Source: an uncultured Candidatus Saccharibacteria bacterium (GTDB lineage Bacteria > Patescibacteriota > Minisyncoccia > Spechtbacterales > HO2-43-30). Taken from it: a stretch of DNA of 64,000 nt. Every line of letters begins with the position of its first letter. The stretch's first letter is position 1. Under the pieces are notes generated by a model. The model was given only the letters and a program-made list of their open reading frames with translations, had not been told where the DNA came from and did not search any database. A program made the translations under genes and the position numbers. Shown here one piece after another: positions 11,541-44,240 of this stretch. The DNA is taken from NCBI GenBank assembly GCA_964504205.1, contig CAZDDE010000002.1, positions 11,505 to 75,504 of the forward strand, given 5' to 3'.

Positions 11541-11671
11541 TTGCTTCTGGCTCATTCTCGCCCCGCCAGCGCGGGGCTGCGAGGCTCGGCCTGTTTTGCT
11601 CCGACTGCGGTCGGAGACCATGCCAAAACAGGCCTCAAATCCGCCAGAAGTAATTATTCAGCAAGCTCATT
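11523..11671 (+). mobile_element. MITE-like palindromic repeat element, copy 1 (~29 bp terminal inverted repeats, internal stem-loops)
   Basis: Left end aatgagcttgctgaataattgcttctggc and right end gccagaagtaattattcagcaagctcatt are reverse complements with one mismatch; near-identical copy at 14622-14769. Confidence 0.75.
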
Positions 11672-14639: not shown

Positions 14640-14769
14640 TTGCTTCTGGCTCATTCTCGCCCCGCCAGCGCGGGGCTGCGAGGCTCGGCCTGTTTTGCTC
14701 CGACTGCGGTCGGAGACCATGCCAAAACAGGCCTCAAATCCGCCAGAAGCAATTATTCAGCAAGCTCAT
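14622..14769 (+). mobile_element. MITE-like palindromic repeat element, copy 2
   Basis: Near-identical to 11523-11671 with the same terminal inverted repeats; supplies stop codons and in-frame leaders for the flanking genes. Confidence 0.75.
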
Positions 14770-14781
14770 GAATCATTCATT

Positions 14782-15555
14782 ATGCAAATAATTATTCCAA
14801 TGGCCGGGCAAGGGGAGAGATTTGCCGAAAAAGGCTACAAGGATATCAAGCCGCTGATTAAAGTTGGCGATAAACCAATTATTGAATATATCACTGAGAT
14901 GTTTCCGGGGGAAACAAATTTTTTGTTTATTTGCAATCAAGAACACCTTGACAGCACTACTCTTGGAAAAACGCTGCATAAGTTAATGCCCAAAGGCAGA
15001 GTGGTCGGCATTTCTGGCCACCAACACGGACCAGTTTGGAGCGTCTTGGCAGCAATGACTTATATCAACGATGAAGAACCCGCCATTGTGAATTATTGCG
15101 ATTTTAACTGTATATGGGATTACGAAAATTTTAAGCGCACTGTTGTTGACAAAGATTGCCATGGCGCAATTGCCTGTTATCGCGGTTTTCATCCCCATCT
15201 ACTTGGGCCCAATCTGTATGCTTCCTGTAGGGTAGATGCAAGTAACTATTTACAAGAAATACGCGAGAAATATTCCTTTAGCGAGAATAAAATGCACACA
15301 TATCAGTCTTCTGGCACATACTATTTTAAGCGCGGAGATTTAATAAAAAAATATTTTCAAGCATTGGTCAATCAAGATATAAATGTCAACAAGGAATACT
15401 ATGTAAGTTTGGTCTATAACTTGATGCTCAAAGATAATCTTCAAACCTATATTTATGAAATAGACAAGTTTTGCCAATGGGGAACGCCGCAGGACCTGGA
15501 GGAATTTCTCTACTGGCTAGATTATTTTAAAAAATCCTATGAAAAGCACAGTTAA
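14782..15555 (+). CDS. Sugar-phosphate nucleotidyltransferase (NTP_transferase/GT-A-like, LicC/TarI/IspD-like)
   Basis: IIPMAGQGERF N-terminal nucleotide-binding motif. The track ORF starts at 14623 inside the repeat; the ATG at 14782 is preferred. Confidence 0.7.
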   Translation: MQIIIPMAGQGERFAEKGYKDIKPLIKVGDKPIIEYITEMFPGETNFLFICNQEHLDSTTLGKTLHKLMPKGRVVGISGHQHGPVWSVLAAMTYINDEEPAIVNYCDFNCIWDYENFKRTVVDKDCHGAIACYRGFHPHLLGPNLYASCRVDASNYLQEIREKYSFSENKMHTYQSSGTYYFKRGDLIKKYFQALVNQDINVNKEYYVSLVYNLMLKDNLQTYIYEIDKFCQWGTPQDLEEFLYWLDYFKKSYEKHS

Positions 15556-16315
15556 TTTGATTCCTATGGCCGGCGCGGGAGCACGTTTTTTTAAGGAGGG
15601 CTTTCGTGATCCAAAATCCCTCATAGATATAGATGGAAAGCCAATGGTTATCCGGGCGACAGAATGTTTACCCGACGCAGATAGATGGATTTTTGTTTGT
15701 AGAAAGGAGCATTTGGACAATTATCCGCTCGCGGTAACACTGAAAAAGGCATATCGTGGATGCACAATTCTTGACATTGATTATCTTAGCGAGGGCCAAG
15801 CTTCAACATGCCTCATGGCCGAGAAGTATATAGATTTAGATAACCCTTTATTAATTTCAGCATGCGATAATGGGATTGTATATAACACGCCCAAGTTAGA
15901 TACGATGATACGGGACAAAGCGGTCGATGCCTTGATTTTCACCTTTAGAAATAATGCGATTGTAGCGCGTAACCCCAAGATGTATGGTTGGGTTAAGGCC
16001 GATGATAAGCAAAGAGTCGAGCGAGTGTCGGTGAAAGTGCCGATTAGCGATAATCCAATGAGTGACCATGCCGTGGTTGGGACATTCTGGTTTCGCAAGG
16101 GGGAGTATTTTATTCATGCCGCAAAAGAGATGATTGCAAAAAATACGAGGATTAACAACGAATTTTATGTTGATGAATGTTTAAACAATGCCGTCGCACG
16201 CGGACTGAATGTGAAAGTGTTTGAGGTGGATAAATATATATGCTGGGGTACCCCAGATGAGTTGAGAACCTTTAACTACTGGCGCGAGTATTTTAATATC
16301 CATAAATTTTATTGA
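15539..16315 (+). CDS. Sugar-phosphate nucleotidyltransferase, tandem paralog
   Basis: LIPMAGAGARF motif; the C-terminus (KYICWGTPDELRTFNYW) parallels the upstream paralog. Confidence 0.7.
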   Translation: MKSTVNLIPMAGAGARFFKEGFRDPKSLIDIDGKPMVIRATECLPDADRWIFVCRKEHLDNYPLAVTLKKAYRGCTILDIDYLSEGQASTCLMAEKYIDLDNPLLISACDNGIVYNTPKLDTMIRDKAVDALIFTFRNNAIVARNPKMYGWVKADDKQRVERVSVKVPISDNPMSDHAVVGTFWFRKGEYFIHAAKEMIAKNTRINNEFYVDECLNNAVARGLNVKVFEVDKYICWGTPDELRTFNYWREYFNIHKFY

Positions 16316-16318
16316 GCC

Positions 16319-16897
16319 ATGATAAAAATCGTCCATCGCGTTAATTCTACTAGGGAACTTACGAAGATTCCGGTTAGCTATGGTGTGGAAGTGGATATCC
16401 GCGGGTATGGTGATGAGCTTGTGCTTAACCATGAGCCTCTTGCCGGAGGAGAAAATTTCGAAGGGTATTTAAAAGAATATGGTCACGCTTTTGCTATATT
16501 CAACATTAAAGAAGCAGGTATAGAACAGCGCGTTATTGACTTAGCCGGGGAATTTAATATAACGAATTTTTTTCTCTTAGATGTTGAATTTCCATTTATA
16601 TATAAAGCCACACGATGCGGATTTAGGAGTATAGCTATAAGGTATAGTGAGGATGAATGTATTGACAGCGCATTGTTATATAAAAGTAGGGTTGATTGGG
16701 TCTGGATTGACACAAATACTCGCTTGCCACTAGATAGGAAGGTAGTTGAGCAGTTGCGCGGTATCAAAACGTGCCTAGTTTCCCCTGACAGGTGGGGAAG
16801 GCCAAACGATATATTAAAGTACAAACAACAAATGAAGGCCCTAAACTTTGAGCCGACAGCAGTCATGGCCGGGAAAGATGTCATACATTTGTGGTAG
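16319..16897 (+). CDS. Glycerophosphodiester-phosphodiesterase-like (GDPD/PLC-like TIM-barrel) protein, short form
   Basis: IVHRV…VEVDIR…DELVLNHE parallels the GDPD HR…E.D…HD catalytic arrangement. Confidence 0.4.
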   Translation: MIKIVHRVNSTRELTKIPVSYGVEVDIRGYGDELVLNHEPLAGGENFEGYLKEYGHAFAIFNIKEAGIEQRVIDLAGEFNITNFFLLDVEFPFIYKATRCGFRSIAIRYSEDECIDSALLYKSRVDWVWIDTNTRLPLDRKVVEQLRGIKTCLVSPDRWGRPNDILKYKQQMKALNFEPTAVMAGKDVIHLW

Positions 16898-16913
16898 TGT
16901 AAGGTCATAACCT

Positions 16914-17627
16914 ATGCCCGCGTTATCTATCATAGTGCCTTGTTATAACGAGGCAGAAAACATCCTGCTTATTTTAGAAAAGTTTTCACGTGTGCTGAAG
17001 GGGCTTTCCGCGGAATTGATTTTAGTAAATAATGGCTCAACTGATGAATCCGGCGAGATCTTGAGAGGTGAGCTGAAAAATCCGTTATATTGCTTTGCGC
17101 GTGTTGTCAGTATCGCAAAAAATATCGGCTACGGGCATGGTATCATGACTGGCTTGCGCGAGGCGAAGGGTGATGTTTTGGCATGGACACACGCGGATTT
17201 GCAAACTGACCCCGCGGATGTTATACGGGCTTATCAAAAATTTCGCGAGCTGGAAAAAAAAGATGCTAATATTTTAATCAAGGGGCGACGCCTTAATCGC
17301 AGACTTGGCGAAAGATTTTTTACCTTTGGGATGGCGTGTCTTGCAAGTTTTGTTTTGGGGGAGGCGCTATATGACATCAATGCTCAGCCGAAAATGTTTT
17401 CCAAATCATTTTTGCTCAAGATGAAAAATCCGCCGGACGATTTTTCACTCGATCTTTATCTGATGTATCTTGCAAAACATTTTAATTACAAAACATACAC
17501 CATACCCGTGCATTTTGGCGAGAGGATATACGGCGAATCAAAATCGGCGGCTAATTTTAAATCGCGTTGCCGCACAATTATGCGCACGTTCAAATACACG
17601 TTTGCTTTACGTTCCAGAATGCGATGA
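16914..17627 (+). CDS. Glycosyltransferase family 2 (polyprenol-phosphate/DPM1-like)
   Basis: SIIVPCYNEAENI…VNNGSTDESGEIL GT2 signature. Confidence 0.8.
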   Translation: MPALSIIVPCYNEAENILLILEKFSRVLKGLSAELILVNNGSTDESGEILRGELKNPLYCFARVVSIAKNIGYGHGIMTGLREAKGDVLAWTHADLQTDPADVIRAYQKFRELEKKDANILIKGRRLNRRLGERFFTFGMACLASFVLGEALYDINAQPKMFSKSFLLKMKNPPDDFSLDLYLMYLAKHFNYKTYTIPVHFGERIYGESKSAANFKSRCRTIMRTFKYTFALRSRMR

Positions 17628-19016: not shown

Positions 19017-19642
19017 ACAAATTTTTCAAGTTCAGTTAAGTCGCGGATTTTTGCCTTTATTTCCATATCCTTGAATGGATCGACGTCAGTTATTCGGCCG
19101 ATAAAACCGATGCGCGCCTCTTTTGCTCCTTGGTAATCATCAATAGAGTCGCCAATCATAATTACTTCATCCGGAGAAAAATTGTATTTCCCCAGTATTT
19201 TTTTGCACATTTCGCCCTTTGAAGCGGGCGAGCCGAATACTTCAACGAAGTATTGATCAATCCCTTTATCTTTTGCAACGCTGCGCATTTCTTCCTCGGG
19301 AGTGCCCGAGGCGATAAACAAAGAAAATTCGCTGTGATATTTTTGCAGAAATTCTTTAGCGCCTTGAACAAAGGGGCATTTTACGATGCGCTCATAAACA
19401 TACCCGGCAAATTTATTGCTTAGTTCTTCGCCGATTTTTTCATTATAGGGTTGATGCAGGATTTCCTGATATACAATTCTGAATTTTTCAAAACGCGGCA
19501 TACTGCCGTGGGCTTTATGCAGATTTCTAATATCTTGGGCGAACTTTGGGTAATCGCCAAACACAAAAACAAAGGCATCGCCCTTGATATCCATTGATTC
19601 TGAAATCACTCCGTCAAAATCAAAAATTATTGCCTTAAGCAT
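19013..19642 (-). CDS. HAD-superfamily phosphatase (beta-phosphoglucomutase-like subfamily)
   Basis: AIIFDFDGV motif I and IGDSIDDYQGA motif IV. Likely start at MLKAIIFDFDG; the longer track ORF overlaps the upstream gene. Confidence 0.7.
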   Translation of the reverse strand: MLKAIIFDFDGVISESMDIKGDAFVFVFGDYPKFAQDIRNLHKAHGSMPRFEKFRIVYQEILHQPYNEKIGEELSNKFAGYVYERIVKCPFVQGAKEFLQKYHSEFSLFIASGTPEEEMRSVAKDKGIDQYFVEVFGSPASKGEMCKKILGKYNFSPDEVIMIGDSIDDYQGAKEARIGFIGRITDVDPFKDMEIKAKIRDLTELEKFV

Positions 19643-20597
19643 TGGATTGCAGTTTGTGTTTAAAAACACAATTAAAAGTGCCGCCTCTCTTATCTTTAGA
19701 TATGAGCGCAAAATTTTTTCGTTCAAAAAAGTCATAAACATCCTTGCTTTGGGGCAATGATTCATCTATTTCTATCAAAACTGATTGAAGGCGCGGGTAA
19801 GAAAAGGTCGCTTCTCCTCCGACAAGAACATCTAATTCATATCCATCCACATCAAGCTTGATGTGGTTTGGCTGCGGTAAATTAAAAGTTTTTACAAAGT
19901 CATCAAGCTTATAACATAAGATTTTTTGGGAAAACTCCTCGCCATGAACCGTTGGCCCACAAAGCACATCGGGCTTTTCTTGTCCAAATTTATGAGCGGC
20001 GCCGCCGGGGGTAATATCCGAGTAATTTAGGGGAGCGAGTTCGGTAATACGGCCAAGCGCAACCTGGAAAGGAACGATGCTTTTTGAAGCATCGTTTAAA
20101 AAGATATTCTTGCACAAAGCCGCAAATGTGGAAAAACTCGGTTCGAAAGCATACACTTTACATGCCGCGCTAGTATGCGCCCAGGCCACAAAGGAGTAAG
20201 CGCCAACATTAGCGCCGATGTCATAAAAAACGTCTCCCGGCTTTACTGTACTTTCAATCCAGGCAACAGTTTCTGGTTCTTTCTTTAGAGCGCGAAGGTT
20301 TCTGATCTGTCGATATGAGCCGACATCCATCGCTATGCGGCCACCGGAGCAATCCAGATTACCGATGACATTGATCGTTTCTTTGAACGCAATTTTCAGC
20401 GCATTAGAAAGAAGAGATACGCCGCCATTGTTGAGGCCGATTGTTTTACCAGCATGCCTTAAAAGAAAAAAGTTGTCATAAACTCGTTTTAAAAAATCCT
20501 GCCAAACTTTAGGTAATAAACGAATTAAGAATCTAAAAAATTTAGAAGGCATGACATTAAAGATATTTGGCAATATTTGTAAGGACAATAGAATCAA
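19635..20597 (-). CDS. FkbM-family SAM-dependent methyltransferase
   Basis: FYDIGANVGAYSF…AFEPS pattern typical of the FkbM family. Confidence 0.7.
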   Translation of the reverse strand: MILLSLQILPNIFNVMPSKFFRFLIRLLPKVWQDFLKRVYDNFFLLRHAGKTIGLNNGGVSLLSNALKIAFKETINVIGNLDCSGGRIAMDVGSYRQIRNLRALKKEPETVAWIESTVKPGDVFYDIGANVGAYSFVAWAHTSAACKVYAFEPSFSTFAALCKNIFLNDASKSIVPFQVALGRITELAPLNYSDITPGGAAHKFGQEKPDVLCGPTVHGEEFSQKILCYKLDDFVKTFNLPQPNHIKLDVDGYELDVLVGGEATFSYPRLQSVLIEIDESLPQSKDVYDFFERKNFALISKDKRGGTFNCVFKHKLQSNA

Positions 20598-21798
20598 GAC
20601 GTTCTTGGGAAAATAATTTTTGGCAATGCTCTTTTGCCCCAGTTGCGATGCGCGTGCGCAGTTTTTGATCTTTAAGGCGTACTAGTTGCCGCGCAAAATC
20701 CTCTGCGCTTTCAGCAAATAATAAATGTTTTTCATTTTCAAAAGGATAACCGGCAAGACCATTTTTGGAAGTAACTGTGGGAAATCCTCGTGCCAGCGGT
20801 TCAAAAATTTTTTGCTGCATCCCGCGCGGTCTTCCCTTCTGGAGATAAGGCGCAAGCGCAATATCCATTTCCGCAAGGGCAGAGTCTAAATCATCGACGT
20901 AGCCGCGGTAAATAACATTTTTTGCAAGGAACGGCTTATATTCATGAGGAAATTTTTCGCCAAAAATGTGGAATTGAAAAGATTCGGAATCCAAACTCTG
21001 GACTCGCGGAATAGCATCTTCCAGAACAAAACGAAGCGCTTTCTTGTTGCGGCGCACCTTATACGTGGATCCCATAAAAAAGACATTTAGCGCGCGTTTT
21101 TCGCCGCTCGTTTTTATTGGCGATGTTTGCTGAAGGAAATACGGCAACCCGCGCAGGGGAAGCGCCGCGATATTTTTTGCGCCGATTCTTTTATACAACT
21201 GAACTTCCCTTTCTGTGATAGGAAAAATGACATCGCTTCCCCGAACAGTCTGAATTTCACTTAAGAGTCGCGCAAAAATCCGAAGATAGTCCCACGGTTT
21301 TGTTTCATGATCTTCCAAGAAATCCACAGGTTCAAAATTGTGTGAACGTGTGGCAATAGGCACGTTATAGCGTTTGACAATTTTGTATAACGGCCATGTA
21401 TACGAACGTTCAAACCATACAATATCAGGCCTCCAGTGCTCCATTTGTGTATGAAGCGCCTTTTTTATTTCAGGGTTGTCAAACTCGCTTGCCGCGCCGT
21501 CGATCAGCAGAGGATTTTTGAGTAGGCGAAGCGCAAGATGGGTCATGCGCTTTGCAAATGACCTCGATGTTCCTGTACGATCAACGAGCGGCACTATTTC
21601 AATTCCAAGTTCGTCTGATCTCTTAAGTAATTCTTTCAGCTGCTCGTTCTTTGCAATTTGTGTAATCAGTTTAACCTTAAAACCTAGGCGTAAAAACTGC
21701 AAAATTCCATGCGCGCGATCTGAAGCACTTGCGCCGTTGATTGGGAATGGGAATGGGGTGCTCACAGTAAGAATTCTTGCCATATGTTGCAAACTCAT
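20557..21798 (-). CDS. Glycosyltransferase family 1/4 (GT-B fold)
   Basis: C-terminal half has the GT4-like donor-binding region (…FMGSTYKV…, E-x7-E-like …LFAESAEDFARQL). Confidence 0.55.
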   Translation of the reverse strand: MSLQHMARILTVSTPFPFPINGASASDRAHGILQFLRLGFKVKLITQIAKNEQLKELLKRSDELGIEIVPLVDRTGTSRSFAKRMTHLALRLLKNPLLIDGAASEFDNPEIKKALHTQMEHWRPDIVWFERSYTWPLYKIVKRYNVPIATRSHNFEPVDFLEDHETKPWDYLRIFARLLSEIQTVRGSDVIFPITEREVQLYKRIGAKNIAALPLRGLPYFLQQTSPIKTSGEKRALNVFFMGSTYKVRRNKKALRFVLEDAIPRVQSLDSESFQFHIFGEKFPHEYKPFLAKNVIYRGYVDDLDSALAEMDIALAPYLQKGRPRGMQQKIFEPLARGFPTVTSKNGLAGYPFENEKHLLFAESAEDFARQLVRLKDQKLRTRIATGAKEHCQKLFSQERLDSIVLTNIAKYL

Positions 21799-23063
21799 TT
21801 CATGAGTACACGCGCTTCTTTTTTTCCGATAACTCTAAAGCGCGGCAGGGGAACGATAAATTTCCCCCCGGAGTTAAGGTATTTCTTTTCTCTCTGAACA
21901 AACTCCTTCAAAAAGTGCCAGGGCAGAACTAAAAAGTAATCCGGTTTCTCTTGGCGGGCCTGCTCTTCAGAAATTATGGGAATGAGAGTTGAAACCGTTT
22001 TCTTTCCCCACTTGGATGGATTGCGATCTGCCGCCGCTTTTACCAACCGGGAGTCCAGCTTGCAAAATTGCAATAGTGTATTTCCTTTCGTTGAAGCTCC
22101 ATATACGTAAACCTTCTTGCCCTTGCGCACCTTACTTGCGACAAAGCTGTAGAGTTTCTCTCTTAAAGCAAACACTCGCGCGGTAAAATCATCATATATT
22201 TTTTTCCGATGCAGGTTTAGCTTTTTCTCGGAATCACGCAATTCCTGAACGCGCCTCGCTATCTTGCGCGAATCGCCTTGATGGTGAATATACACCCTAA
22301 AACTTCCTCCGTTTGTATCGTTTAACACAACATCGAATACTTCCAGGCCATGTCTTTTTAATATCGTCTCAAGTGAACTTAGAGAATAATAGCAAAGGTG
22401 CTCATGGCACGTGTTGTCATACGCGTTTTGGGAAAGCATTGAAGACAAGTAGCTCATCTGAATAACGAATATGCCGTTTGGATCTAAAACTTTGACAATA
22501 TCTGCGACAAAAGCATCTGGATTATCTAAGTCGTAAAACATGGCGATCGCAGTAATTATTTTCGCTTTTGCGTCGCCAAAGCGTTTTCTCCAGTCGTTGG
22601 AGTTGAAAAAATTGTTTATAATTGTCAGGCCTTGGCCTTGGGCATCGGCAACTAAGTTGTACGACGGTTCAAAGCCGACAAGTTTCACATCTTTCACTGG
22701 ATAAGAACGCAACAAAGTGCTGTCGTTGCTTCCAATGTCAATTACAAAATCTCCTGGTTTTAACGCACATTTGCTTACTGCTCTTCGCGCGATGTCCGCA
22801 AGTTCCTTTCTCATCGTATTATTAACTCCGGAGCTATACCAATATTGCCGGTATAATTTTTCAGAGGAAACAGTATGTCGTAACTGGAGTAAACTGCAAT
22901 TTCGGCACAGAATAAGTTTGAGCGGCACTTTTCCGATAGAGAGCTGATCTTTCTCAAGAAAAGTTGAAATATGCAACTCTCCTAAAGATAGAATAAGGTC
23001 GAGTTTCCTCGATCTGCATGAGCGGCAAGCAGTTGTGATTTTCACACCGTTTGCGGTTGCCAT
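21795..23063 (-). CDS. NDP-hexose C-methyltransferase (TylCIII/Methyltransf_13-14 family) with N-terminal zinc ribbon
   Basis: N-terminal CRSCRS…CRNC ribbon, class I MTase core DIGSNDSTLL, C-terminal C-methyltransferase domain. Confidence 0.6.
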   Translation of the reverse strand: MATANGVKITTACRSCRSRKLDLILSLGELHISTFLEKDQLSIGKVPLKLILCRNCSLLQLRHTVSSEKLYRQYWYSSGVNNTMRKELADIARRAVSKCALKPGDFVIDIGSNDSTLLRSYPVKDVKLVGFEPSYNLVADAQGQGLTIINNFFNSNDWRKRFGDAKAKIITAIAMFYDLDNPDAFVADIVKVLDPNGIFVIQMSYLSSMLSQNAYDNTCHEHLCYYSLSSLETILKRHGLEVFDVVLNDTNGGSFRVYIHHQGDSRKIARRVQELRDSEKKLNLHRKKIYDDFTARVFALREKLYSFVASKVRKGKKVYVYGASTKGNTLLQFCKLDSRLVKAAADRNPSKWGKKTVSTLIPIISEEQARQEKPDYFLVLPWHFLKEFVQREKKYLNSGGKFIVPLPRFRVIGKKEARVLMK

Positions 23064-23098
23064 AACTTTTTTGTAATTATGTTAATGCATCTATGATA

Positions 23099-24073
23099 TT
23101 ATCTTGCGCTTAGCCGCGCAAGATCTGCATCTGCCATCATTGTCACTAATTCCTTAAATTTTACTTTTGGCTTCCACCCCAAAATTTTCCGTGCTTTAGA
23201 CGCGTTGCCGCACAACGAGCGAGAATCAATAACACGGAAAAATTTTTTGTCGGTTCTGACATATTTGGTAAAATCTAGTCCGAGATGTTTAAAAACTTCT
23301 TCTGCAAATTCTCTCACCGAATGCGTCTCGCCGCTGGCAATAATATAATCACTTGGAGTATTTTGCTGAAGCATGAGCCACATTGCTTCCACATAATCTC
23401 CGGCGTATCCCCAATCGCGCCTGGCATCGAGATTCCCCAGGATTAGTTTTTTTGCGAGGCCCAGTTTAATCTGCGCCGCGCCATATGTTATCTTGCGCGT
23501 TACGAATTCACTTCCTCTGCGCGGACTTTCATGACTAAACGCAATTCCTCCGCAAGCAAAAAGACCGTAACAATCGCGATACATCTTTGTCAGATAAAAA
23601 CCGGTGGTTTTTGAAATTCCATAAGGAGACACGGGATTAAACTCGGTTCCTTCATCCTGCGGGGATCGCACCGCAGATCCGAACATTTCACTCGATCCCG
23701 CAAAATAAAATTTGCAGTCCTTTTTGAATTCACGCAACGCCGAAAGCAAGTAATGCGTGCCGCTAATATTCGTCGTGAATGTGGAAAATTCATCCGCGAA
23801 CGAGCTGTCTACAAAACTTTGCGCGGCTAGATGATAGCACTCATCTGGTTTAATTTTTGCAATTAATTTCGCTAGGGTCGAAAACTCGTTAATGTCACCG
23901 TCGCATAGAATAACTTTGTCAAGGATCGGACTGATGCGGGAGAATCTGTTTTCAAGATTTTCAATGGCGTGCCTTCTTACAAGGCCATATACCTTATAGT
24001 TTTTGGATATTAAAAATTCTGCCAAGTAAGATCCGTCCTGACCGGTGATGCCGGTTATAAGCGCTTTTTTCAT
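23099..24073 (-). CDS. GDP-mannose 4,6-dehydratase-family SDR (Gmd/Rmd-like paralog)
   Basis: [17 protein letters not shown]-terminus and FYFAGSSEMFG catalytic region. Confidence 0.75.
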   Translation of the reverse strand: MKKALITGITGQDGSYLAEFLISKNYKVYGLVRRHAIENLENRFSRISPILDKVILCDGDINEFSTLAKLIAKIKPDECYHLAAQSFVDSSFADEFSTFTTNISGTHYLLSALREFKKDCKFYFAGSSEMFGSAVRSPQDEGTEFNPVSPYGISKTTGFYLTKMYRDCYGLFACGGIAFSHESPRRGSEFVTRKITYGAAQIKLGLAKKLILGNLDARRDWGYAGDYVEAMWLMLQQNTPSDYIIASGETHSVREFAEEVFKHLGLDFTKYVRTDKKFFRVIDSRSLCGNASKARKILGWKPKVKFKELVTMMADADLARLSAR

Positions 24074-24092: not shown

Positions 24093-25004
24093 TCATAATT
24101 TTAATTTTAAGTTCAGTAATAAATTTTCCGCGGCCTGTTTCTCCATTAAAATGCGCGCCTCTTTGGCATAAGAGCCGATATGGGGGGTTAAGATGATGTT
24201 TTCAAGTTGTGTCAACTTTCCGGTATAGGGCTCTTCTGAAGGAGTATCAATTGCCGCGTTGGCAAGTCTCTTGGTACTTAGCGCGTCGTATAAGGCGTCT
24301 TCATCAACTAATCCGGCGCGCGAGGCATTGATTAAAATGGCGCCTTGCTTCATAAGGGCGATTGATGAACGGTTCATAATACATCCGGCATCACCGGGAA
24401 CATGAAGGGTGATAATATCTGAACTAGCTATGACGTTTTCTAAGCTTGTTATTCTTACCCCCAAACTATCTTGGGGAGGGGCGATATCATAGGCGATAAC
24501 TATAGCGCCAAATGCTTTAAGAATCCGGTACACTTCTTTGCCAATTCTGCCAAATCCAATAATGCCGACAGTCTTCCCCTCAAGGAGCCAGCCCATGGAT
24601 TTTTCCCATTTGCCTGCTCGTATGGATCTATCGCTTTGCGATACGCCTCTTAGGCAGTCCAGGATCAAGCCAATAGTTAGTTCGGCCACTGCTCTTGTTG
24701 GTCCCCATGGGGTATTATAAACTTTTATTCCAAGCTGTTCGGCCGCTTGCATATCCACATTATCAACTCCAGCGCCGCAACGCGAGATCACGCGCAGCCG
24801 CTTCAACTGCTCAAGGGTTTCGCGATTCAAAATTTCGGTTCCGGCAATTATGCCAATAGCATCGCTGGCATACTCAATCAATTCGCTTGAAGCAAGTTTG
24901 CGGTGCAGGGGATTTAATCGAGGCGTCAAATTAGCGCGCTTTAACGCATCAAGCGGGCTCGTATCAAATTCTCCAAAACTGGTTGTTGAGATAAAGATAT
25001 TCAT
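24093..25004 (-). CDS. D-isomer-specific 2-hydroxyacid dehydrogenase family (PGDH/GDH-like)
   Basis: GKTVGIIGFGRIGKEV NAD motif; the start is set at MNIFISTTSF, so the longer N-terminus in the ORF track is probably spurious. Confidence 0.8.
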   Translation of the reverse strand: MNIFISTTSFGEFDTSPLDALKRANLTPRLNPLHRKLASSELIEYASDAIGIIAGTEILNRETLEQLKRLRVISRCGAGVDNVDMQAAEQLGIKVYNTPWGPTRAVAELTIGLILDCLRGVSQSDRSIRAGKWEKSMGWLLEGKTVGIIGFGRIGKEVYRILKAFGAIVIAYDIAPPQDSLGVRITSLENVIASSDIITLHVPGDAGCIMNRSSIALMKQGAILINASRAGLVDEDALYDALSTKRLANAAIDTPSEEPYTGKLTQLENIILTPHIGSYAKEARILMEKQAAENLLLNLKLKL

Positions 25005-25005
25005 A

Positions 25006-25998
25006 TCATATTTTTTGCGCGACGATGCGCATATGTGAACTAAATCCGCATTCGGCAATCCACCGCTGCAGGCGCGCTTTCTCGCGGGCACTTGCTTTAT
25101 TCAGGATTGATTTCCAAAGACGTCCGATATCGACATTATCCTTCCGATACATTCCCTCAACGATATCTAAGTCTATCTTACCAGGAGTTGCCGATTCTAT
25201 AACTCTAAAACCGTTCGATTCAAGAAGTAATTTTATAGAGTGCGGATTAAAAAGATTCAAGTGATGCGGCGGGAAAATATTTTTTGACTTTTCCCATAAG
25301 ATTTGAATGTCAAACCCTTGGCCATTTGGCGCCGTGATAAAAAGGCAGCCACCCGTCTTGAGACGTTTATGCACCTCTCCGAGAAAGTACCGTGGATTCT
25401 GAAGGTGCTCCAGTAGTTCAAACATGCAGAGCAGGTCAAATTGATTATTCCATTTTTGCGGCATTTCCTCAAGTGATGTTTGAATGGTTTCCAGATTTTT
25501 TTGGCGGCATATTTCGGCCATTTCCATAGATGGATCTATGGCTATTAATTTGGCATTTGGCCAAAGTTTCCCGAGTTCCTTCAGGAATATCCCAAACCCT
25601 GCTCCGATATCTCCAATTGTCATTTTCTGATATTGGGGGAAAGTATCTTTAACATATTGAGCCCGCGGGGTAAAAATTTTTTTTCGCCGCGTTTCAGCTA
25701 CTGGCTTGAAAAATTCATTTACCCAAAATTTTGTAGAAGGGGAGTCAATATATATTTGATTTAGGTTTTTAAGGCTGGGACGCGGGTTGGCAAAGAGGGT
25801 TTCACATTCTGCGCATAAGACATACCAGAATCCCAATTTTTTGAACTGACGCTTATACTTTTTGCTATGACAGGCGATACAGGGAATTTCTGCAAAGCCC
25901 TGTTTGTGCTTTAAGATAAGCCGCTCAGCATCTTTTCTTGAGAGGCGTAGATATTCATCAAATGCTTCTTTTTTTCTTATTTCATTTTCTTTCATCAA
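25006..25998 (-). CDS. Class I SAM-dependent methyltransferase with N-terminal Cys4 zinc-ribbon
   Basis: CIACHS…CAEC ribbon; IGDIGAGFGIF motif I; LEHLQNP motif. Confidence 0.6.
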   Translation of the reverse strand: MMKENEIRKKEAFDEYLRLSRKDAERLILKHKQGFAEIPCIACHSKKYKRQFKKLGFWYVLCAECETLFANPRPSLKNLNQIYIDSPSTKFWVNEFFKPVAETRRKKIFTPRAQYVKDTFPQYQKMTIGDIGAGFGIFLKELGKLWPNAKLIAIDPSMEMAEICRQKNLETIQTSLEEMPQKWNNQFDLLCMFELLEHLQNPRYFLGEVHKRLKTGGCLFITAPNGQGFDIQILWEKSKNIFPPHHLNLFNPHSIKLLLESNGFRVIESATPGKIDLDIVEGMYRKDNVDIGRLWKSILNKASAREKARLQRWIAECGFSSHMRIVAQKI

Positions 25999-26783
25999 TT
26001 CAAGATGTATCTTTTTCTTAGAGCGTCATTGGCCATCAATTTTTCTACAAGGTCTAAATCTTCCGGTGTATCTACGCTATGGGTCTGAAACGGCGTTGGT
26101 GCCATTTTAACCTTATAGCCATGTTCCAAAACGCGCAGCATATCTATTGATTCGGCAATTTCAAGGGGAGTCGGCTTCAGGCGATTAAATTTAAGCAAAA
26201 AATCGCGCTTAAAGGGAATAATACAGACCTGTTTCCACATCGGGAAGTCAGTAGCGCCTTTTTTGCGCGTGGGGATTGCTTCGCGGGACATGTACACAGC
26301 AAAATTGTTTTTGTCCAGGACGACTTTGATGCAGTTGGGATCTTCATGTTCTTCACGCGTTGTAATTGGCGCGGTGAGGTTGCTTACTAAAATCGAGGAA
26401 TCTTTAAGTAATGGTTTGACCGAGGCATCTATCATTCTAGGATGCACCATTGGCTCATCCCCTTGAATCATGACTACTATACTTGGCTTTTGTTTTTCTG
26501 CGCGCTCAATCTTCAGCATTGCTTCGGCGCTTCTATCCGAGGCGCGCTGATGCGTATCTTTGGTCATGACGGCTTGGGCGCCAATTGAAGCCGCGTAGTC
26601 CATGATTTCTTGGTCGCATGTTGCGATATAGACTTCGTCAAGAGCCGCGGACATTTTACAGCGAAAATAGACATGTCCCACCATGGGGACGCCGTGAATT
26701 TTGGCGAGCGGCTTGCCGGGGAATCTAGTTGAAGCCATGCGGGCGGGGATGATGCCGATAATCTTAAGTTTATTTTTTTTCAT
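25995..26783 (-). CDS. KdsB-family cytidylyltransferase (CMP-2-keto-3-deoxy-acid-sugar synthetase-like)
   Basis: IIPARMASTRFPGKPL N-terminal motif is characteristic of CMP-Kdo synthetases. Confidence 0.75.
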   Translation of the reverse strand: MKKNKLKIIGIIPARMASTRFPGKPLAKIHGVPMVGHVYFRCKMSAALDEVYIATCDQEIMDYAASIGAQAVMTKDTHQRASDRSAEAMLKIERAEKQKPSIVVMIQGDEPMVHPRMIDASVKPLLKDSSILVSNLTAPITTREEHEDPNCIKVVLDKNNFAVYMSREAIPTRKKGATDFPMWKQVCIIPFKRDFLLKFNRLKPTPLEIAESIDMLRVLEHGYKVKMAPTPFQTHSVDTPEDLDLVEKLMANDALRKRYILN

Positions 26784-27540
26784 AAGTTTTTATCTCCTGC
26801 ATTAGTTTGGCGCAGTTTTTCCCTAAAAATAAAGTGTCCAAACCAAATGCTAAAAATCTGTATCCGGCGTCAAATTTGGCCTTAAAATCGTCGGGATTCG
26901 GATCAACTACATGAAAGCCGGCCGTTTTCTTCATCTTTTTGGAGATTTTCAAAATTTGCGCAAGGGCCGTTTTTACTTTGACGTTATCAAATTGACCGGG
27001 AATGCCGAGTGAACCAGAGAGGTCATAGGGACCGACAATAAATCCGTCTATTCCTTTGACCGCTAGGATCTCCCGAAGATTTTTCACGGCTTGAATATGT
27101 TCTATTTGAGCGATAACAACGCTTTCTTCTACAACCCATTTTTTGTATTTTTCAAAAGTTAGTCCATAACCCTGCGCGCGGCCAAGACCAACTCCGCGTT
27201 TGCCGGTCGGCGGGTATTTGACGGCTTCCACCGCCTTGATAGCGTCGGCACGGCTATTCACCATCGGCACAATCACGCCGCCCGCGCCGGCATCCATCAC
27301 TCTTTTGATTAAATAAGGACTATTATCGCCAACGCGCACCAATGGGGTGCATCCGGAGAGTTCAATGACCTGCATCAGTTCCTGCGCTTCGTCCAAATCT
27401 ATGGCGCTATGCTCCATATCAATGGTCAGCCAGTCAAAGCCGGCGCTTGCCATGATTTCGGCAATGGCCGGATGGCCAAGCGTAATCCAGGAGCCGATAG
27501 TCAGTTCATTTTTGTGTAGTTTTTCTTTTAATGAAATCAT
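26770..27540 (-). CDS. HpcH/HpaI-family class II pyruvate aldolase
   Basis: Overall match to 2-keto-3-deoxy-acid aldolases (…WLTIDMEHS…, …GGVIVPMV…). Confidence 0.7.
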   Translation of the reverse strand: MISLKEKLHKNELTIGSWITLGHPAIAEIMASAGFDWLTIDMEHSAIDLDEAQELMQVIELSGCTPLVRVGDNSPYLIKRVMDAGAGGVIVPMVNSRADAIKAVEAVKYPPTGKRGVGLGRAQGYGLTFEKYKKWVVEESVVIAQIEHIQAVKNLREILAVKGIDGFIVGPYDLSGSLGIPGQFDNVKVKTALAQILKISKKMKKTAGFHVVDPNPDDFKAKFDAGYRFLAFGLDTLFLGKNCAKLMQEIKTYEKK

Positions 27541-29369
27541 ATCTTAATATCTATCATTTGCGGGCAAGAGTCAATATGGTATACAAGAATAAGATGAATT
27601 ACGGGAGTAAGGTAGATCTATTTAGAAAAGCTTTCGGGCGATACAAACTTCAGCTTACTGTTTTAACGTTGCTTGGAGTGGTAAGCGCCTTCACGGAAAG
27701 TCTTGGTGTAACAGCGCTTATTCCGCTTTTTTCCCGTTTGGCGGGGCAAGGGACATCCGATGATATTGGTTCGCGAATTATCGGAAATGCGTTAGATTTG
27801 TTTAACGTTGGGTTTGCATTTAAGTTTCTGCTTGCAATTATCATACTGGCGTTTATTTTCAAAGCCCTTGCGCTTTGGTTGTTCAACTATTTTTCAGCTA
27901 GAGTAACTGCTGATTATGAATATCAAACCCGTAGCGATTTGTTGCGCGGAGTTTTTTCCGCGGACTGGTTTTTTTTAATGCGGCAAAAAGTTGGGTATCT
28001 AGAGACGATTATACTAAGAGACATAAGTATAGCGAGAAACCTTTTTTCAATTGTGAGCGGCGCGATGATGAATCTCGCTAGTTTGGCAATATATGTGGCA
28101 ATCGCCTTGAGCATATCTGGCACCATAACTTTAATATCACTAACTCTGGGCGGACTGATATTTTTAGTTTTAAAACCTCTTCTCTATAAGACAAAAATGA
28201 TAGCGCGTCATATGGCAAAACTTTATAGCGAGATGAATCATCATGTCGGAGAAAAAATCATAGGAATAAAAACAGTAAAGACGAGTTCGGTTGAAGAGGT
28301 TATATCCAGCAAGGCCGATGATTATTTTGAGGAGATACGCAATCTCGATGTCAAGGTAGCGGTTTTGGGGGTTGCGCCAGCGGTTATTATGGAGCCAATA
28401 AGTATTCTTTTTATTGTGAGCATATTTACCTTTCTGTATGTTACTGATAATTTTCAGATCGGAGTTTTTGCGGCCACAATGTACCTCATCCACCGAATCT
28501 TTGGTGATATTCGCAATGTTCAAATGCTGCTCTACAAGGCGAACGAGAGAATTCCATACGTTGAACGCGTTATTGAATTTCAGGAAGAAGTGGCAAAAAA
28601 TCGGGAAAGCGATGGGGGGACTAATAGATTTGAATTTAAGAAATGCCTGGAGTTTAAAAATTTAGATTTTACTTACGAGAGTTCCAAAAATGTTTTGTCG
28701 AACCTAAATTTCGTGGTTAAGAAGGGAGAAATGTTGGGAATCGTCGGTAAATCGGGAGCGGGCAAGACAACTATTGTGGATTTATTTCTGCGTTTAATGC
28801 AACCCACGCGCGGAAAAATCTTAATTGATGGGACGGATATTTCCGCAATAAATATAAAAGAATGGCGCAATAATATTGGCTATGTTTCACAGGATATATT
28901 CGTCCTCAACGACACATTTGAGAATAATATCAGATTTTATGACGAATCAATCAGTGATGAGGTTGTTTGTGATTCTGCTAAGATGGCCTATATTTTTGAT
29001 TTTATTCAAAGCAAAGCAAATCAATTCAAAACTGCGGTAGGGGAGAGGGGCGTTTTGCTCTCCGGGGGAGAAAAGCAGAGACTGGTCCTGGCAAGAGTCC
29101 TGGCGCGGCATCCCTCAATCCTGATTCTTGACGAAGCGACAAGCGCCCTTGATAATGAATCCGAGCTTATGATTCAGCGGGCCATTGAGGGGCTGAAGGG
29201 CAGAGTGACGATTTTCGTGATTGCGCACCGTCTAACAACGCTTTTAAACTGCGACAAGATTATTTTTCTTGAAAACGGCAGAAACTGCGAAGAAGGACCC
29301 CCGCAGGAATTGCTGAAAGATAAAGATTCGAATTTTTTCCAACTTTATAACATTCGCAATCAGTTATGA
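27531..29369 (+). CDS. ABC exporter, fused permease and ATPase (MsbA/type I exporter-like)
   Basis: Six N-terminal TM helices; Walker [10 protein letters not shown]; signature LSGGEKQRL; Walker [13 protein letters not shown]. Confidence 0.85.
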
Positions 29370-30361
29370 AAAAAGCATTGATTACCGGTATTACCGGCCA
29401 AGACGGTTCGTATCTTGCTGAATTTTTGTTAGGCGAGGGATACGAAGTTCACGGCATCATCCGCCGTTCCAGCGATTTTAACACTGGAAGGATCAATCAT
29501 CTCTTTCGGGATATACATTCAAGCGGAGTGAAACTTTTTTTACATTACGGAGATCTGATGGATTCGGGAAATATTGCGAAACTTATATACGAAATTAAAC
29601 CCGAGGAGATATATCATTTGGGAGCGCAATCGCACGTGCGGGTGAGCTTTGACATACCGGAATACACCGCAAATGTGATTGCGCTGGGAACGTTGCGGAT
29701 TTTGGAAGCAATAAAGAATTGCCGATTTCCCATAAAATTTTACAACGCGGCAAGTTCTGAAATGTTCGGCGCATCCCCTCCGCCCCAAAATGAATATACG
29801 CCTTTTCATCCGCGCAGTCCTTATGCCGCGGCAAAAGTTTTTAGTTATAATATCACGCGTAATTATCGTGAGGGTTACGGCATCTTTGGTTGTAATGGCA
29901 TATTATTCAATCATGAATCAGAGCGTCGCGGAGCAACCTTTGTTACGCGCAAGATAACACGCGGCATTGCGCGAATTAAAGCTGGGTTTGATCAAAAAAT
30001 TTATCTTGGAAATCTTGACGCCAAACGCGATTGGGGATATGCTCCGGAATATGTTCGCGCGATGCACCTTATGCTACAGCAGGACAAACCCGATGACTAT
30101 GTTATTGCTACCGGCGAAACTCATTCGGTGCGGGAATTTTTGGCGGAAGCATTTAGTTATGCGGGTCTCGGAGATTGGCGCAGATACATTGAGATTGATC
30201 CGCGTTATTTCAGGCCCGCCGAGGTGGAATGCTTGGTCGGCGATGCTTCAAAGGCAAAAGAGCTATTGGGCTGGGAGGCAAAGGTAAAATTTAAGGAAAT
30301 TGTTCATCTGATGATCGATGCAGACTCAAAACAAATTTATGATTACTCTAGGAACAGTTAA
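29366..30361 (+). CDS. gmd: GDP-mannose 4,6-dehydratase
   Basis: [28 protein letters not shown] and the [20 protein letters not shown] motifs. Confidence 0.85.
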
Positions 30362-31439
30362 TATTTCAAAAAAAACAAAAACTCTTCTCGATGAAGCCCT
30401 AAAGAAAGGCATTATCGGACAGGGTCATTATATCCAGGACTTTGAGCAGAAACTCGCAAAATTTTTAGGTGTAAAGTATGTTATTGCGACTGCCAATGGC
30501 ACGCTCGCCGATACTGTTGCCTTAGCGGTTGCAAAGTATAAGGATGGGGAAAAGCGCAACGAAGTTATTGTTCCAGCGCTTACGTTTATCGCGCAAATTA
30601 ACGCAGTTTATTATAATCACTTAAAACCGGTTTTTATTGATATTGGCTATGACTATCAGATTGATGTTGCGCAAATTGAGAAGAAGATAAACAAAAATAC
30701 CCTTGCCATAATGCCTGCGGATCTTTTGGGTAAACCGGCGAATATGTCTAAGATTTTAGAACTAGCGAAAAAGTACGATCTATATGTGGTCGAAGATGCC
30801 TGTGAAGCGCTTGGATCTAAATACAAAAATAAGTTATGCGGAGCGATCGGCGATATGGGGTGCTTTTCATTTTTTGTCTCGCACTCCATAACGACTGGCG
30901 AAGGCGGAGCTATTGCGACAAATAATAGACAACTTGCGGAGCTTGCTCGTTCTTTGCGCAATCACGGCAGAAAGGGCAGTAATCCGGGCGAGCACTTTAT
31001 TTTTCCGTATATCGGGTATTCCGCGAAGATGAATGCGCTGGAAGCGATTATTGGGCTTGGAGTTATAGATGAGCTTGGCGAGCATATCAAAAGACGGCAT
31101 GCTAATTTAGCAAGACTAAATGAATCAGTTGGCCGAGATTTATTTTTGGATGCAAAGGATGAGTATATTGTGCCGCACGGCTTCCCATTTCTGGTGAAGT
31201 CGCAAAAACTACGTGATAATTTGCTGAAAGAACTTCCTAAAAAATTTGGTATTGAAGCTCGGCAAATTTTTTACTCCATTCCCACCCAGAGCGGCGCTTA
31301 CAGATTTTTAGGGGAAAAAATCGGCAGTTATCCAGTCGCCGAAGATATCGGCCGCCGCGGATTGTATTTACCTTGTCATCAGAATTTAAATGGCAGGGAG
31401 CTCGCGCGGATTGCCGAGGTTCTAAGAAACATAATTTAA
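30318..31439 (+). CDS. DegT-family aminotransferase, GDP-perosamine-synthase-like
   Basis: DegT family signature; immediately downstream of gmd. Confidence 0.75.
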
Positions 31440-32302: not shown

Positions 32303-32842
32303 TTAAAGATTGGTTAATAATGCTTTTGTGTTTTTGGCGAGCATTATAAGCGCTGGATGGAAATTCCCATTGGTTATTTCATCAAGATTTACCCATCGCA
32401 GTGATCGATATTCTTTGGGCTTAATCTCTATACCCTCTTTTTCTTCGTCGCTAATTTTAGCAATCATGGTAATGGCTATGTTGTGCGAACCATTTTTTTT
32501 CGGGGGTTGGGCGCGTTTTGCCCAGACAAGCGAATATGCGCATAAATATTGAAAGCGCGCGGTAGGCATAGTTAAATCAAGCTCGCGTTTGAGAAGGCGT
32601 GCGGCCGATTCTTCAAAATTTTCACCAGGAAGCATGCGTCCGCCAATAATCCACCAATCGGGGTAGGGTAACGCGACTCTCTTCCCCAATAACATTTCTC
32701 GCGCTTCATTCAAAAGCACAATATCCACACAAGCAAAGACGATATTGTCTAAGATCATTCCGTAAGAAGCATCGTCTATAAATTTTGCGTGGGATTTGAA
32801 GCCGTTTTCGATAAAATGCGCTCCCTGAATAATGTTTTGCAT
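32303..32842 (-). CDS. GDP-mannose mannosyl hydrolase-like NUDIX protein (Gmm/NudD/WcaH-like)
   Basis: VDIVLLNEAREMLLGKRVALPYPDWWIIGGRMLPGENFEESAARLLKRELDL parallels Gmm; paralog at 44241-44774. Confidence 0.6.
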   Translation of the reverse strand: MQNIIQGAHFIENGFKSHAKFIDDASYGMILDNIVFACVDIVLLNEAREMLLGKRVALPYPDWWIIGGRMLPGENFEESAARLLKRELDLTMPTARFQYLCAYSLVWAKRAQPPKKNGSHNIAITMIAKISDEEKEGIEIKPKEYRSLRWVNLDEITNGNFHPALIMLAKNTKALLTNL

Positions 32843-43346: not shown

Positions 43347-43405
43347 TTGACTTAACAATATAGTTATGTAAGATTAGTTATAGTTTTTTGACAGGAGGTG
43401 TCCAA

Positions 43406-44227: not shown

Positions 44228-44240
44228 ATTGGAGGACGCA

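Follow-up and report, generated by a model that had tools for sequence, protein, structure and literature searches.

How could a cell build and activate an acidic sugar from a locus in which a KdsB-like cytidylyltransferase adjoins a metal-dependent aldolase and no KdsA gene lies next to the pair? The question is raised by a 64-kb stretch of contig CAZDDE010000002.1 from an uncultured Candidatus Saccharibacteria bacterium (the whole stretch is called the window below), where the gene for an HpcH/HpaI-type class II 2-oxoacid aldolase (ALD) and that for the cytidylyltransferase overlap by 14 nt. To our knowledge, every described route to a cytidine monophosphate (CMP)-activated ulosonic acid (Kdo, sialic, legionaminic and pseudaminic acids, and Kdn) begins with a phosphoenolpyruvate (PEP)-dependent synthase of the KdsA or NeuB type. 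An earlier note on this DNA had proposed that the aldolase replaces such a synthase by adding pyruvate to an aldose; the comparative data presented here support an aldolase-built branch, while its pyruvate donor and 3-deoxy product were assumptions.

We consider it rather probable that the genes at 27540-24093, together with a HAD phosphatase and a GT-B-fold protein farther downstream, form one copy of a widespread, undescribed module. With the same degree of confidence, protein families and gene order suggest that this module would provide a surface glycan with a CMP-activated 2-ulosonic (alpha-keto) acid sugar, by a route that depends on an aldolase and does without PEP. A full-text literature search returned no description of the module, and neither the SugarBase preprint nor the Tannerella nonulosonic acid paper mentions such enzymes.

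The four genes of the earlier note (aldolase, cytidylyltransferase, zinc-ribbon methyltransferase and D-2-hydroxyacid dehydrogenase) were all found where it had placed them, on the minus strand, and profile hidden Markov models (HMMs) confirmed the families it had named. Its observation that KdsA is missing near the pair extends to the whole window: no KdsA-like open reading frame (ORF) was detected in a phmmer search (E<=10) with an E. coli KdsA query, and the Pfam-scanned ORFs agree. The gene span it gave is too short, as the operon reaches 17607 and includes the phosphatase and GT-B-fold genes, which had been overlooked.

Conservation of the module

At least 590 aldolase-encoding stretches occur in species-representative genomes (one per GTDB species). 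ORFs were called and neighbours classified in the best 80 of these loci, and the counts out of 50 given below refer to loci from species-representative genomes with at least 5 kb on both sides. Within 7 kb and on the same strand as the aldolase, a CTP_transf_3 cytidylyltransferase was present in all 50 loci, a NAD-dependent D-2-hydroxyacid dehydrogenase (HADH) in 43, and an ortholog of the HAD phosphatase in 27. The cytidylyltransferase was KdsB-like in 31 loci, often directly downstream of the aldolase, and a short PseF/NeuA-like protein in the other 19, usually just upstream. Counted over all loci, 46 have an extended short-chain dehydrogenase/reductase (SDR) and 20 have a PF04199 'cyclase'. 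The Methanococcoides locus illustrates the arrangement, with the order cytidylyltransferase, unknown, ALD, HADH, SDR, cyclase, HAD, SDR, GT2, AglB. The constant core consists of aldolase, HADH and cytidylyltransferase, and the feeder and tailoring genes vary.

The reverse test gave a reciprocal result. Metagenome contigs were scanned with a KdsB-like profile, whose relatives grade from 70% to 36% identity. Among proteins with at least 1 kb of flank, the aldolase was located within 4 kb of 18 of the 23 that scored at least 205 bits, versus none of the 18 that scored lower. The pairing of aldolase and cytidylyltransferase is beyond chance, because the synteny is conserved and reciprocal across bacteria and archaea. 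No PEP-dependent synthase of the KdsA or NeuB family was assigned among the genes recurring beside the aldolase, not every neighbouring ORF having been scanned.

The carriers include archaea, bacteria of the candidate phyla radiation (CPR) and Dehalococcoidia, all of which are without lipopolysaccharide (LPS). A plasmid of the cultured Acuticoccus sp. I52.16.1 (L166 = NZ_CP094833.1 40686-45138) carries the complete five-gene module under generic names: aldolase/citrate lyase family, acylneuraminate cytidylyltransferase family (a NeuA-type enzyme), phosphoglycerate dehydrogenase, HAD hydrolase and NAD(P)-dependent oxidoreductase. Its aldolase is only 47% identical to that of the window and still bears the histidine signature (His210) of the clade described below, and this plasmid of a marine host is a tractable experimental system for the module. 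Automatic annotations currently name the module genes 'HpaI/GarL aldolase', 'KdsB' and 'phosphoglycerate dehydrogenase'.

The aldolase

The aldolase matched PF03328 over its full length (E 4e-37, 128 bits; residues 15-236 on profile positions 2-215 of 221). Its catalytic residues H44, R69, E147 and D173 align with H45, R70, E149 and D175 of HpaI, where His45 and Arg70 are catalytic and Glu149 and Asp175 are the metal ligands, and all four are invariant across 228 clade members. Identity to the solved YfaU and HpaI structures is 36-40%. The NCBIfam scores are below the cut-offs of the catabolic equivalogs, with 191 vs 369 bits for HpaI, 169 vs 407 for GarL and 158 vs 441 for RhmA. Together with the conserved synteny, these scores place the protein outside the catabolic HpaI/RhmA enzymes, and we propose it as a putative C-C bond-forming enzyme in place of KdsA/NeuB.

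The donor pocket distinguishes this clade. The leucine next to C3 of pyruvate (HpaI L212, YfaU L216) is not kept, and a histidine (His210) occupies the position in 227 of 228 members. Ser45 is found in 215 of 228, where YfaU and HpaI have alanine. Furthermore, Val70 and Tyr125 of the aldolase stand where HpaI/YfaU have proline and tryptophan.

The wider family is very large, with 7965 of 8000 scored candidates reaching E<=1e-10. The best 120 relatives are 63-100% identical and come from Methanococcoides, Methanolobus, Hadarchaeum, Nealsonbacteria, Omnitrophota, Syntrophorhabdaceae and Peptococcaceae, among others, and identities of 55-88% span archaea, CPR, Omnitrophota, Dehalococcoidia, Planctomycetota, Nitrosomonas and other groups. 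The closest relatives of both the aldolase and the GT-B-fold protein (U469) belong to Candidatus Spechtbacteria, Saccharibacteria, Nealsonbacteria and Parcubacteria, which makes a CPR/Patescibacteria origin of the window probable. Phage records contained distant homologs only (30%). Among the best 15 plasmid matches listed, all except Acuticoccus were at most 40% identical to the aldolase; two were annotated as bphF 4-hydroxy-2-oxovalerate aldolase and the rest carried generic aldolase names. In the Nealsonbacteria locus L164, a second, very divergent HpcH-like ORF of 302 aa (10810-11718, minus strand) was observed on the opposite strand, between aldolase and cytidylyltransferase.

The KdsB-like cytidylyltransferase

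The cytidylyltransferase, with the N-terminus IIPARMASTRFPGKPL, matched PF02348 CTP_transf_3 with an E-value of 4.5e-46 (158 bits). Its best NCBIfam model was the subfamily PRK13368 (313 bits, cut-off 255), and it cleared the kdsB equivalog TIGR00466 marginally (161.1 vs 155.2 bits). The protein is 36% identical to E. coli KdsB, and among solved structures KpsU and KdsB come closest to it. Aligned with E. coli KdsB, it shows invariant PAR..R..GKP and QGDEP motifs and an invariant C-terminal VD, so that the nucleotide and metal motifs (R10, K19, QGDEP and the second Asp) are retained. We know of no characterised CTP_transf_3 enzyme that activates anything other than the anomeric hydroxyl of an ulosonic acid.

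A neighbour-joining tree of 120 KdsB-like proteins, with E. coli KdsB as the root, placed the 73 aldolase-adjacent proteins without exception in one clade of 89, whose other 16 members come mostly from short contigs. Of the 31 canonical-type KdsB proteins outside this clade, not one has the aldolase nearby. The two groups also differ in specific residues: the canonical group, like E. coli KdsB, has S/T74-G75, N96, R164, H181, Y185 and L-E-Q at 209-211, versus R74, A/C75, M96, K164, Q181, I185 and V-D-M in the aldolase-linked clade. We take these positions to be Kdo contacts, as in KdsB structures. The window protein groups apart from canonical KdsB and lacks its C-terminal-domain residues; by tree and alignment, it belongs to a separate clade with an apparently changed sugar pocket.

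The 2-hydroxyacid dehydrogenase

The dehydrogenase is part of the core. Its most likely start is not GTG 25091 but ATG 25004, one base past the methyltransferase stop codon, which gives 303 aa, the usual family length. The nearest PDB relatives are phosphoglycerate dehydrogenases (PGDHs) and glyoxylate reductases. Across 51 module HADHs, the catalytic triad (equivalents of R236, D260/E265 and H283) is invariant, and the Asp or Glu closing beta-2, a mark of NAD(H) specificity, is present in all. The Arg-Ser pair of the PGDH substrate loop (human R54-S55) is absent, and an invariant A-G-x-E is found instead in 51 of 51. Human R54 presumably binds the 3-phosphate of 3-phosphoglycerate (3-PG), and glyoxylate/hydroxypyruvate reductases have L-S-D/E at the same position. 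The score against TIGR01327 was 228 bits (cut-off 454).

A true PGDH role, from 3-PG to phosphohydroxypyruvate, was rejected in its simplest form, given that the presumed phosphate-binding Arg-Ser pair is missing in all 51 proteins. Because this pair is lost, the catalytic Arg/acid/His residues are kept and the cofactor residue is of the NAD type, HADH appears to act on a 2-hydroxy or 2-oxo acid that bears no phosphate. In the pathway scheme set out below, the donor and C1-C2 of the product are the only places with a 2-oxoacid function. Supply of the 2-oxoacid donor, which HADH may provide, is the more coherent of the two roles, because reducing the product would destroy the anomeric centre needed by the cytidylyltransferase. 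With HADH in that role, the substrate of the phosphatase would be 3-PG or the sugar phosphate.

Phosphatase, transferases and module variants

The HAD phosphatase of the window, like the dehydrogenase a core member, is orthologous to the module phosphatase, scoring 150-270 bits against its counterparts in 36 related loci, and we propose that it carries out a KdsC-like dephosphorylation step. An inositol-monophosphatase-like neighbour seen in some loci was considered as an alternative sugar phosphatase and rejected, since it clears the equivalog cut-off of CysQ, a 3'-phosphoadenosine 5'-phosphate (PAP) phosphatase; sulfation is therefore indicated instead.

Many modules end at the 3' side with u617, a Pfam-less protein of about 620 aa with an invariant His-Pro motif that weakly matches TIGR04326 and the BFO_1060 glycosyltransferase family. 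Other loci end in MptE/Maf-like or LIC12162-family transferases. An HMM search of the window found none of the u617, LIC12162, MptE-like and nt425 transferase families. The gene directly after the HAD gene in the window encodes U469 instead, and the same position is occupied in L005, L164 and L165. U469 has 19 homologs in all, from CPR wherever named. Its AlphaFold2 model (mean pLDDT 83.6) has a GT-B fold, and its C-terminal domain resembles the KxHP domain of u617 (hhalign probability 94%, E 9e-8). We read U469 as the CPR counterpart of the module transferase, a candidate CMP-sugar glycosyltransferase.

A second set of loci swaps SDR and HAD for three genes: a GmhA-like SIS protein, a GFO/IolG-like oxidoreductase and a variable third part. 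The last consists of a short-chain dehydrogenase with an AroB-related 'sugar phosphate phospholyase' (TIGR04425, 436 bits), or of the CysQ-type PAP phosphatase. The phospholyase (cyclizing) variant was observed beside the aldolase/HADH core in L027, L028, L034, L046, L047, L056, L058, L063 and L068, and such loci may represent a variant with a deoxy or carbocyclic product.

Proposed pathway and donor

Families, catalytic residues, synteny and clade-specific pockets were computed, and every reaction, the step order, the donor, the acceptor and the product are inferred from them. In the proposed pathway, the class II aldolase would convert a 3-carbon 2-oxoacid to its metal-bound enolate and join this to an aldose or an aldose phosphate, replacing KdsA/NeuB. 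The HAD phosphatase would then take off the phosphate, like KdsC or the Kdn-9-phosphate phosphatase; alternatively, it could act upstream, for instance from 3-PG to glycerate. The KdsB-like enzyme would couple the anomeric C2-OH to CMP, and the loss of pyrophosphate would pull the reversible aldol reaction. The methyltransferase would tailor the sugar, and the GT-B/HP-motif protein would hand it to the glycan, which could be exported via the ABC transporter or Wzy machinery of the island. That a CMP-linked ulosonic acid is passed to a glycan is inferred from the GT-B and HP-motif proteins and from the AglB, Wzy and ABC genes nearby.

The polar His210 and Ser45 around C3 of the donor suggest a donor with a polar C3 substituent. 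If the aldolase route is correct, a tentative reading to which we give somewhat less than an even chance is that the donor would be hydroxypyruvate rather than pyruvate, made from D-glycerate by an NAD-dependent, GRHPR-like HADH, with a 3-hydroxy instead of a 3-deoxy product. This is consistent with the NAD-type HADH that lacks the PGDH phosphate-binding Arg, and with the position of His210, which corresponds to the leucine of HpaI/YfaU and to Phe210 of SwHKA, a hydroxy-ketoacid aldolase of Sphingomonas wittichii. In SwHKA, this aromatic replacement of a conserved Leu contacting the donor C3 is reported to explain why the enzyme accepts hydroxypyruvate and further analogues of pyruvate (PMC10099721). 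A fuller version of the proposal, which we regard as speculative and on balance unlikely, is a third, PEP-independent way to CMP-acidic sugars in archaea, CPR/DPANN and many anaerobes, in which the His210 aldolase would condense glycerate-derived hydroxypyruvate with an aldose to give a 3-hydroxy (non-deoxy) 2-ulosonic or ulosaric acid as a new glycan building block.

Several observations weigh against the proposed pathway. The near-universal HADH has no obligatory role in a plain scheme of aldolase, phosphatase and cytidylyltransferase, and the pathway model is therefore incomplete. Some loci use other neighbours (the GmhA-like SIS protein, the GFO oxidoreductase or the AroB-related phospholyase), and feeder chemistry therefore varies. 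In the Parcubacteria locus L165, a 21-kb contig, the HADH-SDR-HAD-U469 block occurs with a NeuA-like cytidylyltransferase and no HpcH aldolase within 10 kb. Among the best PDB matches of the U469 model, UDP-GlcNAc 2-epimerases fit about as well as GT-B glycosyltransferases, and a role like that of a nucleoside diphosphate (NDP)-sugar hydrolase or 2-epimerase is possible. As for hydroxypyruvate, the donor-site histidine might be there for stereocontrol, or to bind oxaloacetate instead of a 3-hydroxyl. Finally, the acceptor aldehyde, the carbon number and the stereochemistry are not derivable from sequence or neighbour content.

L165 also holds a radical SAM/SPASM protein, an EamA transporter and a KpsC/KpsS-type Capsule_synth gene. 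Its gene set fits none of the alternative explanations given below cleanly.

Comparison with known systems

The module resembles the Kdo pathway (KdsD, KdsA, KdsC, KdsB) in its presumed logic, in which a 3-carbon 2-oxoacid unit is joined to an aldose phosphate, a HAD phosphatase acts on the product and a KdsB-family cytidylyltransferase uses the anomeric C2-OH. It differs in using an HpcH-fold metal aldolase, whereas KdsA of the Kdo pathway is PEP-dependent and has the DAHP-synthase fold. Its phosphatase is of the HAD-IA type and not the KdsC type, and its cytidylyltransferase forms a clade of its own with an altered pocket. Furthermore, it adds a conserved 2-hydroxyacid dehydrogenase and an SDR, and it is present in LPS-less organisms.

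The nonulosonic acid and Kdn pathways (NeuB/PseI/LegI with NeuA/PseF/LegF; Kdn-9-phosphate synthase, phosphatase and CMP-Kdn synthetase) share several features with the module. It ends in a CTP_transf_3 enzyme, which is PseF/NeuA-like in many loci; its neighbours resemble nonulosonic acid transferases (BFO_1060/TIGR04326-like, Maf/MptE-like, with the HP motif); and it lies in surface-glycan loci, often next to a true NeuB cluster. In contrast, its condensing enzyme is unrelated to NeuB and presumably uses a free 2-oxoacid instead of PEP, and neither an aminotransferase nor an acetyltransferase is conserved in it.

Among aldolases, HpaI, GarL and YfaU/RhmA have the same fold as the module enzyme, the same catalytic His, Arg, Glu and Asp, and 36-40% identity to it; unlike theirs, its context is biosynthetic and not an operon for the degradation of aromatics or sugar acids. 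SwHKA (PDB 6R62 and others) is likewise a member of the HpcH family with a replaced donor-pocket leucine, aligning in register at position 210. The similarity amounts to about 108 bits, the replacing residue is phenylalanine in SwHKA and histidine here, and the physiological role of SwHKA is not nucleotide-sugar biosynthesis. A precedent for an anabolic HpcH/HpaI-type aldolase is RhiG of rhizocticin biosynthesis, which builds a 4-hydroxy-2-oxoacid skeleton. Unlike the module, RhiG belongs to a phosphonate pathway with PEP mutase, uses oxaloacetate decarboxylatively and has no cytidylyltransferase of this family.

If the proposed pathway is correct, the module would represent a new logic for acidic-sugar biosynthesis via a reversible metal aldolase, probably leading to a new sugar, in at least several hundred species that include lineages with minimal metabolism. 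It would correct two misannotations: 'KdsB' as an LPS marker in LPS-less organisms, and 'HpaI/GarL aldolase' as a sign of aromatic or sugar-acid catabolism in reconstructions from metagenome-assembled genomes. Surveys of ulosonic acids that rely on NeuB or KdsA homologs alone would miss it. The well-conserved aldolase with its unusual donor pocket is also a resource for biocatalysis, and cultured carriers (Acuticoccus, Syntrophomonas wolfei, Methanococcoides and Methanolobus) are available for direct testing.

Alternative explanations

The module might be a PEP-independent route to authentic Kdo, in which pyruvate and D-arabinose or arabinose 5-phosphate, after condensation and dephosphorylation, give CMP-Kdo for glycans other than LPS, for example beta-Kdo linkers or polymers resembling capsules. 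The marginal pass over the TIGR00466 cut-off, the solved relatives KpsU and KdsB, the Capsule_synth gene of the related locus L165 and the parallel between the aldolase-phosphatase-cytidylyltransferase trio and KdsA-KdsC-KdsB all point this way. We nevertheless regard this route as improbable, since the aldolase-linked clade changes H181 to Q, Y185 to I, E210-Q211 to D-M and S/T74 to R, and since many loci have a PseF/NeuA-like instead of a KdsB-like cytidylyltransferase. It also leaves the leucine-to-histidine change in the donor pocket and the near-universal HADH and SDR unexplained. Gram-negative carriers such as Nitrosomonas and Sulfurimonas, moreover, are expected to own a normal Kdo pathway.

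A second explanation separates the aldolase from the activated sugar: aldolase, HADH and phosphatase would make a small 2-hydroxy or 2,4-dihydroxy acid as an acyl or ether substituent of another sugar (for example a neighbouring nonulosonic acid or a perosamine-type amino sugar), and the cytidylyltransferase would activate that sugar or the acid itself. The combination of an aldolase with a 2-ketoacid reductase is chemically natural, and the reduction is thermodynamically favourable. In the window, and likewise in L005, L008, L045, L066, L076 and L081, the module has nonulosonic acid genes as neighbours, and a divergent Gmd and DegT pair adjoins the operon. Nonulosonic acids with N-glyceroyl and di-O-methylglyceroyl groups have been described (PMC5378307; bioRxiv 10.64898/2026.04.20.719630). 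Against this, many loci are without NeuB-type genes, for example those of Nitrosomonas (L070, L075, L077) and the Acuticoccus plasmid, and these NeuB-less loci keep their own cytidylyltransferase directly beside the aldolase. An acyl-activating enzyme (ligase, acyl carrier protein or CoA transferase) is not conserved in the module. The characterised CTP_transf_3 enzymes, as said above, are not known to act on anything but ulosonic-acid anomeric hydroxyls, and overall we give this explanation little chance.

Branched sugars with a pyruvate-derived C3 side chain occur in nature, and the aldolase enolate could conceivably attack the 4-keto group of an SDR-made NDP-4-keto-6-deoxyhexose, giving a shewanellose-type branched sugar whose side-chain 2-keto acid is reduced by HADH. 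HADH would thereby acquire a clear role, and the extended SDR that comes after HADH in 46 loci, like the Gmd-like SDR in the same place in the window, would fit. This explanation is very unlikely, as it accounts neither for the always-present, linked cytidylyltransferase nor for the phosphatase, and the SDR is missing from the Saccharibacteria locus L005. That a catabolic HpaI/GarL/RhmA-type aldolase lies by chance beside a housekeeping KdsB, as the automatic gene names would have it, is barely credible and already contradicted by the comparative data, namely the reciprocal synteny across domains, the aldolase scores far under three catabolic cut-offs, the overlapping genes and the LPS-less archaea, CPR and Dehalococcoidia among the carriers.

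The operon and the surrounding glycan island

The module genes of the window belong to an operon of 10 tightly packed minus-strand genes running from 27540 to 17607 in translationally coupled order (Table 1); for instance, the methyltransferase start overlaps the cytidylyltransferase stop by 4 nt. The operon is located inside a surface-glycan island of about 45 kb. The island also encodes a Bac_transf initiating transferase and a Wzy_C/TPR protein, besides a number of glycosyltransferases and NUDIX proteins. On its divergent strand, beside the operon, an ABC exporter is accompanied by Gmd and DegT. A separate NeuB/NeuA-type branch at 2.8-5.6 kb, reported by the earlier note, is indeed present in the island, with its NeuB 23 kb from the aldolase in a different operon.

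Table 1. Genes of the aldolase operon and of the NeuB/NeuA-type branch in the window
Feature	Position	Strand	Family matches and remarks
ALD, HpcH/HpaI class II (metal-dependent) 2-oxoacid aldolase, 256 aa	26770..27540	-	PF03328
KdsB-like CTP:ulosonate cytidylyltransferase, 262 aa	25995..26783	-	PF02348, PRK13368, TIGR00466
Zinc-ribbon class I SAM methyltransferase, 330 aa	25006..25998	-	Methyltransf_23/11/25, CxxC...CxxC
HADH, NAD-dependent D-2-hydroxyacid dehydrogenase, 303 aa	24093..25004	-	PF02826/PF00389
Gmd-like extended SDR, 324 aa	23099..24073	-	PF16363 E 3.5e-114; TIGR01472 gmd 362 bits, cut-off 415
TylC3-type NDP-sugar C-methyltransferase, 422 aa	21795..23063	-	Methyltransf_13, _23, _14 domains
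GT4-type (GT-B) glycosyltransferase, 413 aa	20557..21798	-	Glyco_trans_1_4, Glyco_trans_4_4
FkbM-family methyltransferase	19635..20597	-	PF05050, TIGR01444; likely start ATG 20552
HAD-IA phosphatase, ~209 aa	19013..19642	-	PF13419/PF00702; likely start = Met of MLKAIIFDFDGV
U469, GT-B-fold protein, 469 aa	17607..19016	-	without Pfam or NCBIfam match
NeuB+SAF gene of NeuB/NeuA-type branch	2787-3839
CTP_transf_3 gene of NeuB/NeuA-type branch	4864-5625

The zinc-ribbon methyltransferase, whose translation carries the CxxC...CxxC motif at its N-terminus, has orthologs (>=200 bits) in 13 of 81 loci, usually right behind the KdsB-like gene, and a close homolog at the same threshold in 10 of the 50 full-flank loci. 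It is an optional tailoring enzyme of the module. The Gmd-like SDR of the window occupies the position of the GalE/LegB-like SDR of most loci and scores only 40-70 bits against module SDRs elsewhere. Its membership of the module is uncertain, and it may feed the adjoining C-methyltransferase instead. The TylC3-type C-methyltransferase probably represents a deoxysugar branch of its own within the operon, and related loci repeatedly contain FkbM methyltransferases.

At 17-28.2 kb, the number of predicted promoters and terminators did not exceed that in shuffled sequence. RNA genes were absent from the window according to Rfam and tRNA scans, and exact-sequence cluster look-ups returned no protein names. 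At 27531-27540 there is almost zero intergenic space between the aldolase gene and the divergent ABC exporter gene, and about 35 nt separate the two starts in gene calls on identical ENA contigs.

Two Gmd-type SDRs are present in the window, one in the minus-strand stretch 21795-24073 and one in the plus-strand stretch 29366-31439. The latter is followed by a DegT aminotransferase (a perosamine-type branch) and lies behind the ABC exporter. The plus-strand ORF at 38511-39338 (275 aa) resembles UDP-glucose/GDP-mannose dehydrogenase, with partial matches to the N-terminal and central domains, and may be truncated or a pseudogene. Four NUDIX-domain genes (32303-32842, 43388-44227, 44229-44774 and 54343-55113) were observed in or beside the island, one of them fused to a 6-O-methylguanine DNA methyltransferase DNA-binding domain.

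A plus-strand cassette at 9042-17627 opens with two large Pfam-less proteins of 832 aa and 763 aa, the second of which has a C-terminal PRK/uridine-kinase-type domain. It continues with a class II aldolase/adducin-type protein (13812-14639), a MobA-like nucleotidyltransferase (14623-15555), two unknown proteins and a GT2. With a kinase, an aldolase or epimerase and a nucleotidyltransferase, this cassette looks like a further sugar-activation pathway.

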